Shown here: piece by piece, positions 2,752 through 10,280 of the stretch
Position numbering within the stretch: the stretch's first letter is position 1
Layout: every line of letters starts with the position of its first letter
Assembly: GCA_040770465.1 (NCBI GenBank)
Contig: JAXGJB010000054.1
Location: 1 to 10,280, forward strand
DNA from: Methanothrix sp.
Lineage (GTDB): Archaea > Halobacteriota > Methanosarcinia > Methanotrichales > Methanotrichaceae
Direction: 5' to 3'
DNA length: 10,280 nucleotides
Translations under genes and position numbers: made by a program
The notes under the pieces: generated by a model
The model's database searches: none
Seen by the model: only the letters and a program-made list of their open reading frames with translations
Told to the model about the DNA's origin: nothing

Positions 2752-2897
2752 AGAGAAGGGATCGTCGATTTGGCCCGAGATTATCTATAGCCCTCCAATT
2801 CGGCCTCTTTTGCCGATACTAAATCCGGGACGAAGTCGGAGATTACGCAATCTTCACTTAAAATTATTTTTTTATAATTACCCAAATTCTTGACACT

Positions 2898-2951
2898 ATA
2901 ACGATTAACAAAGCAGTAACTTTATTAATCATGAACATTGTTAATCGTGAT
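2898..2951 (+). promoter_or_regulatory. Putative promoter of acs copy 1: TATA box bracketed by an inverted repeat
   Basis: TTTATTAA at 2921-2928 lies between ATAACGATTAACAA (2898-2911) and TTGTTAATCGTGAT (2938-2951), which are 13/14 complementary. An alternative TATA-like TTTATAAT is at 2871-2878. Confidence 0.6.
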
Positions 2952-3097
2952 GGTTCTGCTCGATTGCACGTGATGAGTGGAAAGAATGTTGGGCGGCCTT
3001 GAAGGCAGACATTCCAGATGCCGAAGGAGGATATGCCCAGCATATGGGAGAGACGGAGCGCAAATATCCGAATCTGTAGGATAAGGAGGGTCTAAAA
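2952..3097 (+). promoter_or_regulatory. Predicted long 5' leader of acs copy 1 with SD AGGAGG (3084-3089)
   Basis: Transcription start inferred about 30 nt from the start of the TATA box. SD lies 8 nt before the TTG. Local hairpins at 2984-3014, 3031-3045 and 3065-3083. Confidence 0.5.
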
Positions 3098-5098
3098 TTG
3101 GCTGAAAAGGTAGAGAAGAAGGGGAAGACGAAGGTTCTGATGGAGGAGACGAGACTCTTCGAGCCCCCGAAGGAATTGGTCGAGAAATCCAACGTCATGC
3201 AGTGGATGAAGAAGAAGGGCTTCAAAACCGAGAAGGAGATGCGAAAGTGGTGTTCTGACAATTATCTTGAGTTCTGGGACGAGATGGCCAAGACCTATGC
3301 CGACTGGTTCAAACCTTACTCCAAGGTCATGGACGATTCGGATAAGCCCTACTTCAAATGGTTCACCGGCGGCCTCATCAACATGACCCACAACGCCGTG
3401 GACCGCCACGCCAAAGGGGCCAAGAAGGACAAAGTGGCCTACATCTGGGTCCCCGAGCCGACGGACCAGGCCACCCAGAAGATCACCTACGGCGAGCTGG
3501 CAAAAGAGGTGAACAAGTTCGCCAACGGCCTCAAGAGCCTCGGCGTCACGAAGGGCGACAGGGTCAGCCTCTACATGCCCATGATCCCCCAGCTCCCCAT
3601 CGCCATGCTGGCCATCGCCAAGATCGGGGCCATCCACAGCATAGTATTCTCCGGATTCAGCGCCAAGGGGTTCGGCGACAGGGTGAAGGACTGCGAGGCG
3701 AAGGTGGCCATCACCACCGACGGCTTCTATCGACGTGGAAAGCCGATGCCATTGAAGGCGAACGCCGACGAGGCCATCGCCGATGCTCCGAGCGTCGAGC
3801 ACCTGATCGTCTACAAGAGGACGGGCATCGACGTGGCGTGGAAGGAAGGAAGAGACATCTGGTGGCACGACCTGGTTAAGGGCAAGTCCGAGGAGTGCGA
3901 AGCAGAGAAGCTCGACCCCGAGCACAGGCTCTTCATCCTCTACACCTCCGGCACCACAGGTAAGCCCAAGGGGATAGAGCACGCCCAGGGAGGATACTGC
4001 GTCGGTCCGGCCCAGACGCTCCACTGGGTATTTGACCTGAAGGACGACGACGTATGGTGGTGCACCGCAGATATCGGATGGATCACAGGCCACTCCTACA
4101 TCGTATATGGGCCGTTATGTCTCGGCGTGACCGGCATCATGTACGAGGGGTCTCCTGACTTCCCGGACTTCGGAAGATGGTGGAATCTGATCCAGGATCA
4201 CAAGGTCACAGTCCTCTACACCGCCCCCACGGCTATACGTATGTTCATGAAGCAGGGACCGGAGTGGCCTGCCAAGTACGACCTCTCGAGCCTGCGGCTC
4301 CTTGGGTCGGTCGGCGAGCCGATCAACCCGGAGGCCTGGATGTGGTATCGTGAGCACATAGGAGGAGGCAAGCTCCAGATCATGGACACCTGGTGGCAGA
4401 CGGAGACTGGAACCTTCATCTGCTCGCCGCTGCCGATAACCCCGCTGAAGCCCGGGTCGTGCACCTTCCCGCTTCCGGGATTCAACACCACCATCTACGA
4501 CGAGCTTGGAAACGAGGTGCCTCTTGGGGAGGGCGGCAACATCGTCAACGAGACGCCGTGGCCTTCGATGCTCAGAGCCTTCTACGGCGACAAAGAGAGG
4601 TACCAGAAAGAGTACTGGGAGATGTACTGGGAAACGCCCAAACGCGGCACCTACCTCGCCGGCGACAAGGCCACCAGGGACAAGGACGGCTACTTCTGGA
4701 TCCAGGGCAGAATCGACGACGTTCTGAGCGTCGCCGGTCACAGGATCGCCAACGCCGAGGTGGAGTCCGCCATCGTGGCCCATCCCAAAGCCGCTGAGGC
4801 CGCCGTCGTCGGAAAGCCCGACGAGATCAAGGGCGAGTCGATCGTCGCCTTCGTCATACTGAAGGTGGGCGTCGATCCGAGCCCGGAGCTGGCCAAGGAC
4901 GTGATAAGCCACGTGAGGAAGACCCTCGGCCCCGTGGCTGCGCCGACGGAGGTCCATTTCGTCAACGACCTGCCCAAGACGAGGAGCGGCAAGATCATGC
5001 GCCGTGTTGTCAAGGCCAAAGCCCTCGGCAACCCCACCGGCGACACCTCCGCTCTCGCCAACCCCGAGGCTGTAGAAGGCATACCGCTCATCGTTTAG
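3098..5098 (+). CDS. acs: Acetyl-CoA synthetase, AMP-forming (acetate--CoA ligase), copy 1
   Basis: 666 aa. AMP-binding motif [39 protein letters not shown], and [11 protein letters not shown] containing the catalytic Lys. TTG start with AGGAGG. Confidence 0.97.
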
Positions 5099-5121: not shown

Positions 5122-5409
5122 GCATTCAATCCAACCTGTGCCTTGTCTCCTGAGCTTATCGTCTTCGATGAAAGCAGGACTTTTGTCGGCCATATATTTA
5201 GTCCGAACACGAAGAGCTCTTTATTGAAAATGCAAAGCAATTTGTAATTATCATTTCAACAATTAGCATCTCAATAAGAACGCGAATCGGGTTTGTGAGA
5301 TGTTTAGATATATAAAATTCAAACTATGGAGAATAATACTTCACCTCACCAAGCTGAAAAGGGCATGTAAAAAAGGGCTTTGGGGCGACTGGCCCGCCGA
5401 ATAGAAATT

Positions 5410-5425
5410 TAAATTATATAATTTA
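5410..5425. promoter_or_regulatory. Perfect 16-bp AT palindrome, possible protein-binding site or TATA element
   Basis: TAAATTATATAATTTA is its own reverse complement. Function is not demonstrated. Confidence 0.35.
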
Positions 5426-5597
5426 TATTAACTACCTTTATATTATACCGGGTGCCTTTTTATATCAGTATGACAACGATTTGACCTGAGTTGGCGGAGG
5501 CAGACTATCAATTATCGTCGAATTAAAAGCATCCCAATTGAAGTTCTTGTTCTCGAAATATGCAAATCCGCATTTAGAATTAAGTTTTTAAGATATT

Positions 5598-5664
5598 CTT
5601 AATAATTGTGCCGAATACATCATGATAAATCATTATAATATTCGTTCTCGATAGATTTATAAAC
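5598..5664 (+). promoter_or_regulatory. Promoter of acs copy 2 (upstream conserved block plus BRE/TATA)
   Basis: TTTATAAA at 5656-5663. 5645-5664 matches 8282-8301 at 17/20, and 5598-5638 matches 8233-8273 at 30/41 without gaps. Confidence 0.75.
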
Positions 5665-5685
5665 AAAGGAAGTATAGAGTACGCC

Positions 5686-5853
5686 GGTGTTTCCAGAGCG
5701 ACTCCACGGTGTGGAGGGGATATTCCGACAATGGTCGCCCGAGTGCGTTCAATTATCCCGAAAGACTGGATCTAAACGCGGATCTATCGGTAGATGGATC
5801 TGGTAATCGGTGTGGAGGAGCGGGAACATCTCAATTTGAGGGCTAAAAGGAGG
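5686..5853 (+). promoter_or_regulatory. Predicted structured 5' leader of acs copy 2, SD AGGAGG 5848-5853
   Basis: Begins GGTGTTTCC about 30 nt from the TATA start. 5686-5707 can pair with 5812-5830. Internal stems: 5717-5722/5754-5759, 5726-5737 and 5782-5795. Confidence 0.6.
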
Positions 5854-5860
5854 ATTTTAA

Positions 5861-7849
5861 TTGGCTGAAGGAAAGACAGGAACTACCAAGGTTCTGATGG
5901 AAGAGACCAGAATTTTTGAGCCGCCAAAGGCCTTGGCCGAGAACTGCAACGCCTGGCAGTGGGCGAAGAAGAAGGGGTTCAAGAGCGAGAAGGAGATGCG
6001 CGCCTGGTGCGGCGAGCACTACATCGAGTTCTGGGACGAGATGGCCAAGACATTCGCCGACTGGTACGAGCCCTACACCAAGGTGATGGACGACTCAGGC
6101 ATGCCCTACTTCAAGTGGTTCACCGGCGGCAAGATCAACGTCTTCTACAACGCCGTCGAGAGGCACATCAAGGCAGGAAAGGGCGCGAAGGTCGCATACC
6201 ACTTCATCCCCGAGCCCACCGACCAGCCCGAGAAGGCCTACACCTACCAGGAGATTTATGAGACTGTCAACAAGCTGGCAAACGGCCTGAAGAGCCTTGG
6301 CGTAAAGAAGGGTGACAGAGTATCCATCTACATGCCCATGCTGCCTGAGACCGTCATGGCGATGCTGGCCTGTGCCAAGATCGGCGCCATCCACAGCCTG
6401 GTCTTCTCCGGGTTCAGCTCCAAGGGGTTCGGCGACAGGGTCCAGGACTGTGAGGCGAAAGCGGTCTTCACGTCTGACGGCTTCTACAGGCGCGGAAAGC
6501 CGATGCCCCTCAAGCCCCAGGCTGACGAGGGCGTCAAGGACGCTCCCAGCGTAAAGAACGTCATCGTCCTCAAGAGGACCGGCCTTGAGGTCCCATGGAC
6601 CGAGGGGAGAGACGTCTGGTTCCACGAGCTTGTAGCAAGCCAGTCAGCTGACTGCGCGACTGAGGTCATGGACGCCGAAGACAGGCTATTCATCCTCTAC
6701 ACCTCCGGCACCACCGGCAAGCCCAAGGGTATAGAGCACGCCCACGGCGGATACTGCGTCTGCCCCGCTCAGACACTCAAATGGGTCTTCGATCTTAAGG
6801 AGGGTGATGTATGGTGGTGCACCGCCGACGTCGGCTGGATCACCGGCCACTCCTACGTCGCCTACGGGCCGCTCTCCCTGGGCGCGACCAGCATAATGTA
6901 TGAGGGGTCTCCCGACTTCCCGGACTTTGGCCGCTGGTACAAGATCATCCAGGAGCACAAGGTATCAGTGTTCTACACAGCACCGACCGCCGTGCGGATG
7001 CTGATGAAGCAGGGTGAAGAGTGGCCCGAGAAGTACGACCTATCCAGCATAAGGCTGCTCGGGTCCGTCGGCGAGCCTCTCAACCCCGAGGCCTACATCT
7101 GGTACAGGAAGAACTTCGCCTATGACAAGGCCCCCATCATGGACACCTGGTGGCAGACCGAGACCGGCTGCTTCGTCATATCCCCGCTGCCCATGACGCC
7201 CTGCAAGCCCGGCTCCGTCGCATACCCGCTGCCCGGCTTCAACACCACCATCTACGACGAGGACGGAAACGAGGTCCCCCTGGGAGAGGGCGGCAACATC
7301 GTCAACCCGACCCCCTGGCCGTCGATGCTCAGAGCCTTCTACAAGGACGAAGTCCGGTACAAGAAAGAGTACTGGGAGATGTACTGGAAGGTCAAGCCCG
7401 GCACCTACCTCGCCGGCGACAAGGCGACCAGAGACAAGGACGGATACTGGTTCGTCCAGGGCAGAATCGACGACGTCCTGAGCGTCGCCGGTCACAGGAT
7501 CGCCAACGCCGAGGTCGAGTCCTCCCTCGTAGCCCACAAGGCGGTATCCGAGGCTGCAGTCATCGGCAAGCCCGACGAGGTCAAGGGCGAGGCGATCGTC
7601 GCCTTCGTCATCCTGAAGAAGGGAGTCAACCCCACCGACGATCTCGCCAAGGAGCTGAAGACCCACGTCAGGACCACCATGGGACCCCTGGCCATACCCG
7701 CCGGCGTCTTCTTCGTCGACGACCTGCCCAAAACGAGGTCCGGCAAGATCATGCGCCGCGTCGTAAAGGCCAAGGCCCTCGGAAACCCCACCGGCGACAC
7801 CTCAGCTCTCGCCAACCCCGAAGCAGTGGACGGAATCCCCCTCATCTGA
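5861..7849 (+). CDS. acs: Acetyl-CoA synthetase, AMP-forming, copy 2
   Basis: 662 aa with the same signature motifs as copy 1 ([45 protein letters not shown]). TTG start 7 nt after AGGAGG. Confidence 0.97.
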
Positions 7850-7884
7850 GGGCGCCCGGCCACCGTCCGCCTTTTTTTATTTTT
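7839..7884 (+). terminator. Putative terminator of acs copy 2
   Basis: CCCTC-ATCT-GAGGG hairpin over the stop (7839-7852), an overlapping GGCG...CGCC stem (7851-7871), then TTTTTTTATTTTT (7872-7884). Confidence 0.7.
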
Positions 7885-8232
7885 CGTTGCTGCCTTTTCT
7901 CGGCGTATTTAAATTGGGTTCACCCGGATATTTTCGATTTTGCAAAGATTATAACGTCGATCTTTTATCCCCCCAGTTGACAGAATATGCCCGATATCGA
8001 GGGCAGCCTGCATCGGACGGGAGCACGGTCTCAGGACTATTTTAATTCCAAATCTGAAATGAGCTTGAGCTATTCAGTTCTCTCCAGATGGTCGACTGCG
8101 AAATCTCCAGCTCAATTCGGGCGAGAATAGACCGATCTTCGTCTCCAATCTCGGGGACGACACCCTCATCTTTTATCCTCAAAACTCGCCAAGAATCGAA
8201 CTCCACTTTTTGAATTAAAAATCTCCATAATC

Positions 8233-8301
8233 CTTAACAATTTTCCATCATATATCGTTATAATTCCTTATAAAAACACATTTTTCGACACATTTATAAA
8301 C
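8233..8301 (+). promoter_or_regulatory. Promoter of acs copy 3 (upstream conserved block plus BRE/TATA)
   Basis: TTTATAAA at 8293-8300. Homologous to the copy-2 promoter, with tandem decamers ATCGTTATAA-TTCCTTATAA at 8254-8273. Confidence 0.75.
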
Positions 8302-8322
8302 GAGAAGGGGAAGATCGCATCA

Positions 8323-8511
8323 GTGTTTCCGAGAATGCCCACGATAAAAGGAGTTTGCTTTGCGGTCGGTCGCAAAAAGGGAGACTCAAACCCGCACCGC
8401 ATGGCAGAAGGGAGGCGCGCTTCATCCAGACCATTTCCGTCTCCAGGTCGATCTCGTCGTTTTGAAGGGTCTTTTTGAGGAAACGCTTCAAGCTGAAAGT
8501 CAAAAGGAGGT
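8323..8511 (+). promoter_or_regulatory. Predicted structured 5' leader of acs copy 3, SD AGGAGGT 8505-8511
   Basis: Begins GTGTTTCC 30 nt from the TATA start. 8323-8345 can pair with 8456-8486. Internal hairpin at 8351-8387. Confidence 0.6.
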
Positions 8512-8517
8512 AGAAAA

Positions 8518-10280
8518 GTGGCTGAAGGAAAAACCGGAACAACCAAGGTTCTGATGGAAGAGACCAGAATTTTTGAGCCGCCAAAGGACCTCGCCGAGAA
8601 CTGCAATGCCTGGCAGTGGGCGAAGAAGAAGGGCTTTAAGACCGAGAAAGAGATGAGAGCCTGGTGCGGCGAGCACTACATCGAGTTCTGGGACGAGATG
8701 GCCAAGACCTTCGCCGACTGGTATGAGCCCTACACCAAGGTGATGGACGACTCCGCCAAGCCCTACTTCAAGTGGTTTGTCGGTGGCAAGATCAACATGT
8801 TCTACAACGCCATCGAGAGACACATCAAGGCAGGAAAGGGCGCCAAGGTCGCATACCACTTCATCCCCGAGGCGACCGACCAGGCCGAGAAGGCCTACAC
8901 CTACCAGGAGATGTACGAGACCGTCAACAAGCTGGCGAACGGTCTGAAGAGCCTCGGCGTGAAGAAGGGGGACAGAATCTCCATCTACATGCCCATGCTC
9001 CCCGAGACCGTCATGGCGATGCTGGCCTGCGCCAAGATCGGCGCCATCCACAGCCTCGTCTTCTCCGGGTTCAGCTCCAAGGGGTTCGGCGACAGGGTCC
9101 AGGACTGTGAGGCGAAGGTCGTCTTCACCGCTGACGGCTTCTACAGGCGCGGCAAGCCTCTGCCCCTCAAGCCCCAGGCCGACGACGGCGTCAAGGACGC
9201 TCCCAGCGTAAAGAACGTCATCGTCCTCAAGAGGACCGGCCTTGAGGTCCCATGGACCGAGGGGAGAGACGTCTGGTTCCACGAGCTTGTGGCAAGCCAG
9301 TCCGCAGACTGCGCGACCGAGGTCATGGACGCAGAGGACAGGCTCTTCATCCTCTACACCTCCGGTACCACCGGCAAGCCCAAGGGTATCGAGCACGCTC
9401 ACGGCGGATACTGTGTAGGCCCCGCTTACACCAGCAAGTGGGTATTCGACCTGAACGAGGATGACGTCTACTGGTGTACCGCCGACGTAGGCTGGATCAC
9501 CGGCCACTCTTACGTCGCCTACGGACCTCTCTGTCTGGGCGTCACCAGCGTCATGTACGAGGGTTCCCCCGACTATCCCGACTTCGGCCGCTGGTACAAG
9601 ATCATCGAGGACTACAAGGTCTCCGTCTTCTACACCGCTCCGACCGCAGTGCGGATGCTGATGAAGCAGGGCAACGAGTGGCCCACGAAGTACGACAGGT
9701 CCAGCGTCAGGCTGCTCGGATCCGTCGGCGAGCCCCTCAACCCCGAGGCTTACATCTGGTACCGCAAGTTCTTCGGAAACGAGGTCTCCCCCATCATGGA
9801 CACCTGGTGGCAGACCGAGTCCGGGTGCCACGTGATCTCCCCGCTGCCCATGACCCCCTGCAAGCCCGGCTCCGTCGCATACCCCCTGCCCGGCTTCAAC
9901 ACCACCCTCTTTGACGAGGACGGAAACGAGGTGCCCCTGGGATCCGGCGGCAACATCGTAAACCCGACCCCCTGGCCGTCGATGCTCAGGGCCTTCTACA
10001 AGGACGAAGTCCGGTACAAGAAGGAGTACTGGGACATGTACTGGAAGGTCAAGCCCGGCGCCTACCTCGCCGGCGACAAGGCCACCAGGGACAAGGACGG
10101 ATACTGGTTCGTCCAGGGCAGAATCGACGACGTTCTGAGCGTTGCAGGTCACAGGATCGCCAACGCCGAGGTCGAGTCCGCTCTGGTAGCCCACAAGGAC
10201 GTCGCTGAGGCGGCCGTCATCGGCAAGCCCGACGAGATCAAGGGCGAGGCCATAGTCGCCTTCGTCATCCTGAACGAGGG
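8518..10280 (+). CDS. acs: Acetyl-CoA synthetase, AMP-forming, copy 3 (3'-truncated by the window edge)
   Basis: Not in the ORF track. Translated by hand from GTG at 8518 ([22 protein letters not shown]...): 587 full codons with no stop, ending ...AFVILNE. Contains [34 protein letters not shown] and GRIDD. Colinear with copy 2 at offset 2657. Confidence 0.97.

Follow-up and report, generated by a model that had tools for sequence, protein, structure and literature searches.

The window analysed here, that is the whole stretch of 10,280 nucleotides from a Methanothrix contig, contains three acetyl-CoA synthetase (acs) genes in tandem, beside an AI-2E-type transporter gene and a radical-SAM/UPF0004 gene. 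The genes and the promoter and ribosome-binding signals of the second and third copies are given below, where A1 denotes an alignment of 15 copy-2-type leaders.

3098-5098: acs copy 1, in tandem with copies 2 and 3
5656-5663, plus strand: acs copy-2 promoter, TATA box (TTTATAAA), the same in all 15 aligned promoters
5849-5853, plus strand: Shine-Dalgarno (SD) sequence GGAGG of acs copy 2, invariant in A1
5861-7849, plus strand: acs copy 2, 662 aa, TTG start
8293-8300, plus strand: TATA box (TTTATAAA) of the acs copy-3 promoter, predicted start A8322 or G8323
8506-8510, plus strand: SD sequence GGAGG of acs copy 3
8518-10278, plus strand: acs copy 3, GTG start at 8518, running past the end of the window

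Counting 30 nt from the start of the TATA box predicts transcription of copy 2 to begin at G5686, while the same count from the first T of the copy-3 box leads to G8323, with A8322 one base earlier. The closest titled relatives of acs copy 2 lie in metagenome-assembled genomes (MAGs) named Methanothrix harundinacea, Candidatus Methanocrinis and Methanotrichaceae, and so bear out the taxonomic guess made in the first-pass annotation. The TTG start of this copy at 5861 is backed by the paralogue behind leader L026, which has ATG in the same alignment column, and one copy-2 orthologue (G046:C56:7846-8145) has a single in-frame TAG within its first 100 codons, which could mean that the gene is broken, that the sequence contains an error or that the codon is read through. 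Upstream of the copy-2 TATA box, at a distance of 20-40 nt, lies an AT-rich palindromic element (ATCATGAT..ATCATTAT, 5618-5639). It also precedes leaders L059-L066, L077 and L080, its conservation exceeds that of the leader, and its form in another genus is a pair of ATCATTATGAT copies; we regard it as a candidate transcription-factor operator of acs promoters.

The first-pass annotation had proposed, from two leaders of this window, that the 5' end of the acs leader pairs with the region just upstream of the SD and that selection maintains this closed structure. We call the closing helix P1. The letters and coordinates on which the proposal was built hold: in copy 2, GGTGTTTCC (5686-5694) faces GGGAACATC (5822-5830) and, further inward, GCGACTCCAC (5698-5707) faces GTGGAGGAGC (5812-5821); in copy 3, the octamer GTGTTTCC (8323-8330) faces GGAAACGC (8479-8486), and the 3' segments of the two copies are identical at 22 of 32 positions, as reported. 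The structural features of the two leaders are as follows.

5686-5695, plus strand: P1 5' arm of copy 2 (GGUGUUUCCA), at the predicted mRNA 5' end; 9 of 10 positions pair with 5821-5830
5698-5707, plus strand: P2 5' strand of copy 2 (GC-GA-CUCCAC), from the consensus fold of A1
5780-5801, plus strand: internal hairpin of copy 2 (GGAUCUAUC-GGUA-GAUGGAUCU), in the MFE and consensus folds
5812-5821, plus strand: P2 3' strand of copy 2 (GUGGAG-GA-GC), from the consensus fold of A1
5821-5830, plus strand: P1 3' arm of copy 2 (CGGGAACAUC), ending 30 nt ahead of the start codon
8322-8331, plus strand: P1 5' arm of copy 3 (AGUGUUUCCG), 9 of 10 positions paired, P1 pair probability 0.99
8478-8487, plus strand: P1 3' arm of copy 3 (AGGAAACGCU)

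By the 30-nt count from the TATA box, the conserved 5' arm corresponds to the predicted first bases of the transcript. RNA contigs from three RNA-library runs of one study (X1-X3) cover the copy-2 leader together with its coding sequence, free of mismatches, at 5697-6051, 5701-5930 and 5696-5983, and other contigs stop at 7871, 22 nt past the stop codon of acs copy 2. They point, as weak evidence from a single study, to a leader that from 5696 onward is joined to the coding sequence, and none of them contains a joint across the leader. The contigs start 2-7 nt after the octamer and are therefore uninformative as to whether the 5' arm is present in the RNA. The regions 5300-5695 and 7922-8491 have no RNA contigs and copy 3 is almost uncovered; since neither contig ends nor uncovered parts prove anything, these data neither place the transcription start nor rank the expression of the copies.

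Folding of the individual leaders leaves the question undecided. The closing stem is present in the MFE and centroid structures of copy 2 (5686-5860), whereas in copy 3 it is seen only when the RNA begins at A8322 and ends before the SD (A8322-8505, again in both MFE and centroid); folded from 8323 to 8517, the copy-3 octamer pairs elsewhere. The first-pass annotation had taken a folding energy no better than that of shuffled sequence to count against the element, and this is what we find: the energy of copy 2 is ordinary (z=-0.79, with 41 of 200 shuffles folding as well), as are those of the two copy-3 segments (z=+0.50 for 8323-8517 and z=+0.55 for A8322-8505). Because none of these z-scores is significant, folding energy alone gives the element no support.

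The case for P1 is instead comparative. When searched for as DNA, the copy-2 leader has full-length relatives in 12 genomes from its own genus, which are 72-83% identical to it. In A1 the promoter is almost invariant and both arms nearly so, and variation is greatest in the interior of the leader; because the arms change so little at such distance, the covariation term of the consensus fold is close to zero. We found acs N-termini in 96 of 101 Methanotrichaceae genomes and read 82 upstream regions, of which 59 are distinct leaders of the P1 class, 16 belong to a second, unrelated class (the copy-1 type), five are genus-specific, one is a hybrid and one has no recognisable start. The 59 P1-class leaders, from 12 genera, make up alignment A2, which was produced by MAFFT and was not fitted to structure. 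Although blind to structure, MAFFT set both arms of all 59 leaders in register, with a consensus of about 10 nt, R-R-U-G-U-U-U-C-C-N, pairing with GGAAAC-R-Y. Standard pairs fill 82.2% of the 639 cells in columns 13-23 against 258-268, compared with 27-57% when the partner columns are slid by 1-3 positions. None of 500 shuffles reaches the observed paired share, the covariation score or the 48 cells with double-sided changes, a control that overstates the case as the sequences are related; this kinship spares the slid-register comparison and the evidence from TATA offset, interior loss and further genera presented below.

Double-sided changes occur in seven of the 11 column pairs tested, and, together with pairing that exceeds that of the shifted registers, are what a conserved RNA helix should display. 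Covariation is seen at pairs 13/268 (AU 19, GC 17, GU 10), 15/266 (UA 41, UG 12, CG 3), 19/262 (UA 45, UG 9, CG 3), 21/260 (CG 41, UG 5, GC 2) and 22/259 (GC 22, CG 14, AU 4, GU 2, UG 1). The outermost of the column pairs tested, 23/258, is unpaired in 48 of 59 leaders, so that P1 comprises 10 bp. Its core, UUUCC/GGAAA, is nearly invariant (for example, GC in 56 and CG in 54 of 59), and it is the surrounding pairs that covary. There are 42 distinct arm combinations, most of them paired at 9 or 10 of 10 positions. With each leader folded from column 13 up to a point 12 nt ahead of the start codon, the P1 pairs have a mean probability of 0.80, and 48 of 57 leaders reach 0.5 or more. Some orthologues have uncompensated mismatches (A.G in L016 and L021, C.A in L018 and L019), and in L075 and L076 only 7 of 10 positions pair and the pair probability is 0.00. 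The arms recur in a third acs copy of genus g7 (L095, L099) and in another acs copy of genus g9 (L096). In all, P1 occurs in 13 of the 16 genera sampled, a count in which the upstream regions of g3 and g11 were left out and g8 yielded no acs.

It is possible that the two arms are conserved as DNA rather than as RNA, for example as an initiator, as transcription-factor sites or as the terminal inverted repeats of an inserted element. The 5' arm does overlap the predicted start site, the upstream promoter region is conserved even better than the leader, and FilR1 binds acs promoter fragments in M. harundinacea according to excerpts of PMC3991700, although this binding bears on the promoter and not on the P1 helix. 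However, among the 400 cells of 40 distinct arm pairs, G.U (49) outnumbers A.C (17), which fits a helix in the sense-strand RNA and not a DNA palindrome; the flanking positions covary, and an arm-to-arm span that ranges from 30 to 179 nt is unsuited to a dimeric DNA binder. In the window's own genome, moreover, the pattern TATA-N22-25-RTGTTTCC has just two matches, both of them acs leaders, so the arm is neither a general initiator nor part of a repeat family. The octamer is not enriched either (31 matches versus 47 for the reversed control), on which ground we rejected a repeat or MITE. We consider a role confined to DNA scarcely credible. On comparative sequence grounds, we show P1 to be a conserved sense-strand RNA helix that is specific to acs, in agreement with the proposal of the first-pass annotation that selection keeps the 5' end of the leader paired with the segment ahead of the SD and with its expectation of covariation in homologues.

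The specificity for acs is apparent at several scales. Within the genome of the window, the combination of TATA box, GTTTCC and a downstream GGRAAC is confined to the two acs leaders with P1. The pattern TTTATAA-N22-25-RTGTTTCC, sought in 301 genomes of the class, is present in 66 of 104 Methanotrichaceae genomes, sporadically in three other families (18 of 134, 4 of 32 and 2 of 12 genomes) and in none of 18 genomes from the remaining four families; a cruder motif pattern was absent from all 39 acs loci titled as other taxa. Of six matches retrieved away from known acs genes, within or outside the family, five (L091-L094 and L097) were discarded, as no acs or SD-led gene follows them. A genome-wide comparison of 5'-end/pre-SD pairing in 38 strict-TATA leaders, a set with little power, gave six cases versus three in controls at -12 kcal/mol or below and no clear trend. 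The first-pass annotation recognised no named RNA family, and neither do we: Rfam 15 has no match at the gathering threshold in the window or in 20 further loci. At E up to 10 the window gives six matches, all far below their gathering scores, the best in a leader being AsdA (19.9 bits versus a gathering score of 52, E=2.3), and at E up to 1 none of the matches in the 20 further loci falls inside a leader. In one of the flanks, L022:1949-2141, there is a tRNA (46 bits) beside a C/D-box-like match below the gathering score (37.4 versus 45 bits). Our literature search found no description of an acs leader, untranslated region or start site in Methanothrix/Methanosaeta. The P1 fold is conserved family-wide and, as far as this search shows, undescribed.

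The distance from the TATA start to the first base of P1 is 29-31 nt in 56 of the 59 leaders, which places the helix close to what is, by prediction, the 5' end of the mRNA. The three exceptions (L072, L074 and L081, of one clade), in which this distance is 38 nt, have extra 5' bases that pair with extra bases 3' of the 3' arm, to give a helix of about 17 bp in L081; with this lengthening the helix again starts at about TATA+29, near the predicted +1. At the other side, the 3' arm ends 20-33 nt ahead of the start codon, and the stretch that follows it is partly conserved, as CUUCAA or CUUGAUC. Five leaders from several genera (L062, L075, L076, L078 and L079) contain the short palindrome GATCTAGAT(T) in the stretch that separates the 3' arm from the SD. 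The interior is dispensable: L059 retains only 68 nt, and two copy-3 orthologues (L032 and L033) have lost the whole interior, which leaves the P1 hairpin alone, closed over a loop of 9 nt, and then the SD tail, ahead of open frames of 677 aa.

These natural variants bear on the possibility that the leader is a ligand-sensing riboswitch, in which a metabolite would bind a closed multibranch fold and alter access to the SD. Elements that such a switch might use do recur. In the largest orthologue group (A3, 21 leaders from many genera), single-sequence MFE folds show a pyrimidine-rich/G-rich P2 (CYUCC/GGGAG) directly inside P1 in 11 of 21 leaders and a recurrent long-range P3, GGUCAGGGC/GCCUGACC. 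The CUCC strand of P2 in copy 2 is, in addition, complementary to the SD as well as to its GGAG partner, and alternative pairing with the SD columns is conceivable, making a switch possible from the sequence. However, the consensus fold of the same 21 leaders contains P1 only, a comparison of cognate with non-cognate duplexes for inner helices in 12 representatives is not significant (permutation p=0.115), a naive column-pair scan for inner helices was swamped by chance runs of 4 bp, and, as already noted, Rfam holds no match. The interiors of the paralogue groups do not align with each other in A2 and thus have no conserved core in common; since the interior both differs between paralogue groups and can be lost altogether, a riboswitch is very unlikely. 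Among the functions suggested by the first-pass annotation, the riboswitch-like sensor is not supported by this comparison; a stability or processing element and a protein-binding platform are both compatible with it. In their modelled folds, the A3 leaders resemble a single elongated and irregular hairpin more than they do a sensor with several branches.

The finer structure that had been read into copy 2 fares less well than P1. The consensus fold of A1 consists of the closing stem, GC/GC, CUCC/GGAG and two small hairpins and nothing more, which does not amount to the "multibranch" RNA that had been envisaged. The P2 pairs (13-14/173-174 and 17-20/167-170 in A1) are kept in 12-15 of the 15 leaders with one-sided changes only, CUCC/GGAG included, and no double-sided change. 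The internal hairpin at 5780-5801 has one double-sided change in each of three of its six pairs; in L021 (G035), a 34-nt insertion duplicates the internal hairpin region, aligned to about 5770-5800 of the window. The supposed tandem G.A/A.G is found in two of the 15 copy-2-type leaders. The mini-hairpin after the 3' arm, presented as showing a compensatory change, keeps all four pairs in eight of 15 copy-2-type leaders, most changes break a pair, and in seven of nine copy-3 orthologues C.A replaces C-G; moreover, its first base, C5830, is also the last base of P1 and is claimed by both. A conserved upstream open reading frame is not apparent, the ATG of the copy-2 leader being present in three of the 15 aligned leaders only.

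The P1 class is not the only type of leader upstream of acs. Copy 1 and its relatives (window 2880-3097; L037, L044-L049, L053-L058, L067, L068 and L070) form the second class, in which the TATA box stands in different surroundings (CTTATTAATCATG). A conserved hairpin, GCGUUCUC...GAGAGAACGC, recurs among the relatives together with a GGCAGAU...AUCUGCC helix, a pattern from which the window's own copy-1 leader has diverged. Copy-1-type leaders have no consistent 5'-end/pre-SD pairing (z ~0), and their consensus fold contains the GCGUUCUC/GAGAACGC hairpin and a GGCA/UGCC helix only. At two loci, L026 (G048) and L028 (G038), the gene in the copy-1 position has a copy-2-type leader and promoter with one P1 pair switched from C-G to G-C, which suggests exchange or conversion of leaders between paralogues. 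In the hybrid L027 (G050) the promoter and 5' end are of the copy-2 type and the 3' part is of the copy-1 type; its altered arm (AUGUCUCC) pairs with a different partner, UUGGAGA. Genus g7 has two further acs leaders (L084, L085 and L087; L086 and L088) that differ in sequence from P1 and are comparable in layout: close to the predicted 5' end they have UGCCUC or AUCUGCCGC, which pairs with GAGGCA or GCGGCGGAU immediately ahead of the SD.

P1 is, then, a structured cis-acting mRNA leader element. Why should a helix at this position be maintained across a family while the RNA that it encloses is free to change? The reading that we favour, albeit tentatively (at a probability of roughly 0.45), is that P1 is a 5'-terminal closing helix that shields the mRNA from decay initiated at its 5' end and at the same time insulates the SD. 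We infer this role from a conserved, acs-specific, sense-strand helix that extends from the predicted +1 to 20-33 nt before the start codon. By burying the 5' end of the mRNA, P1 would slow 5'-end-dependent decay, and by sealing off the fast-evolving interior it would keep the context of the ribosome-binding site constant and open, with the SD left in a short A/U-rich single-stranded tail. The outcome, in an organism that grows very slowly, would be an mRNA that lives long and is translated well, coding for the first enzyme of acetoclastic methanogenesis. A ribonuclease that could be held off in this way appears to be present in the host, as the genome encodes an RNase J family protein of 446 aa (TIGR00649, 453.4 bits versus a cut-off of 400).

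A shielding helix does not by itself explain why the UUUCC/GGAAA core is more constrained than a purely structural helix needs, a constraint that argues for recognition by something. The main rival to the closing-helix reading is therefore that P1 is a sequence-specific double-stranded operator, in which a putative protein or small RNA reads UGUUUCC/GGAAACA beside the SD and controls jointly how those acs paralogues that have this leader are translated or degraded, perhaps as acetate or the energy state varies. A core that stays nearly invariant over 12 genera and across paralogues with otherwise unalignable leaders would be expected of such a site, as would the confinement of the motif to acs, the position of P1 20-33 nt from the start codon, and the anti-SD-like CUCC strand directly inside P1, which could instead pair with the SD. 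However, the same conservation could stem from a promoter-proximal constraint on the 5' arm that the 3' arm merely tracks, and core bases are changed in several natural variants; we hold this operator to be conceivable but doubtful. Its extension to a regulon is a little more doubtful still: P1 would then be the shared operator through which acs is controlled post-transcriptionally, the putative factor and the CUCC strand switching SD access or decay according to the supply of acetate or energy.

Perhaps, alternatively, P1 serves as a processing signal, with an endonuclease cutting the single-stranded stretch 3' of the helix to release an mRNA with a short leader. In the 5' untranslated regions of Methanolobus psychrophilus, most of the sites at which processing occurs fall 20-30 nt ahead of the start codon, and such processing makes for greater stability and more translation, as stated in excerpts of PMC5499594; P1 ends at a similar distance, 20-33 nt, and the partly conserved CUUCAA or CUUGAUC directly after it could be where such a cut is made. 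However, the RNA contigs hold the copy-2 leader and coding sequence in one piece, at a depth like that of neighbouring contigs from the coding sequence, and the bare-hairpin leaders have almost nothing that could be removed. We thus consider processing unlikely to be what maintains P1.

Methanothrix and its relatives produce a large share of biogenic methane, and Acs, which they encode in several copies, catalyses the first and ATP-costly step. To our knowledge, almost nothing is known of how these copies are regulated, and the organisms have no genetic system. The interest of P1 lies in where the helix sits and in the breadth of its conservation: located at the predicted 5' end of most acs mRNAs in 13 genera, it gives a concrete point at which post-transcriptional control can be tested, indicates where transcription probably starts in MAGs and adds a candidate to the very short list of cis-acting mRNA structures in archaea. 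It could also be used as a portable leader to obtain stable expression in engineered methanogens. Should the operator and its regulon prove true, P1 would be the first family-wide cis-RNA control element for an archaeal methanogenesis enzyme.

Among known systems, the closing-helix reading most readily recalls the 5'-terminal stabiliser stems of bacteria, such as the leader hairpin of E. coli ompA and the leaders of B. subtilis aprE and ermC. P1 likewise begins a few nt from the predicted mRNA 5' end, upstream of a free SD, in a very highly expressed gene and in a host with an RNase J type enzyme. Unlike these local hairpins, it joins arms that lie 30-179 nt apart, its host is archaeal and its core sequence is conserved family-wide. 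Archaeal rRNA and intron processing stems, with their bulge-helix-bulge motif, also use distant inverted repeats to enclose a variable interior, but P1 lacks the pair of 3-nt bulges separated by 4 bp. A kink-turn of the L7Ae-binding kind is evoked by the 3-nt bulge that follows P1 in copy 2 and by the possible tandem G.A two pairs further inward; we rejected it, as two Watson-Crick pairs separate the bulge from the G.A and GA/GA occurs in two of 15 leaders. Riboswitches and other cis-regulatory families of Rfam share with the acs leaders a structured 5'-leader element beside the SD and an anti-SD-like strand at hand, but the acs leaders have no conserved ligand-binding core and can dispense with their interior. 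In archaea, the processed 5' untranslated regions of Methanosarcinales mRNAs, as described for the related methanogen Methanolobus psychrophilus in excerpts of PMC5499594, come close in several respects, being long, structured leaders of housekeeping or energy genes whose functional site lies 20-30 nt ahead of the start codon and which are linked to stability and translation; the cleavage sites mapped there by 5'P-seq carry a loose U-rich motif, whereas what the acs leaders have at this position is a conserved closing helix.
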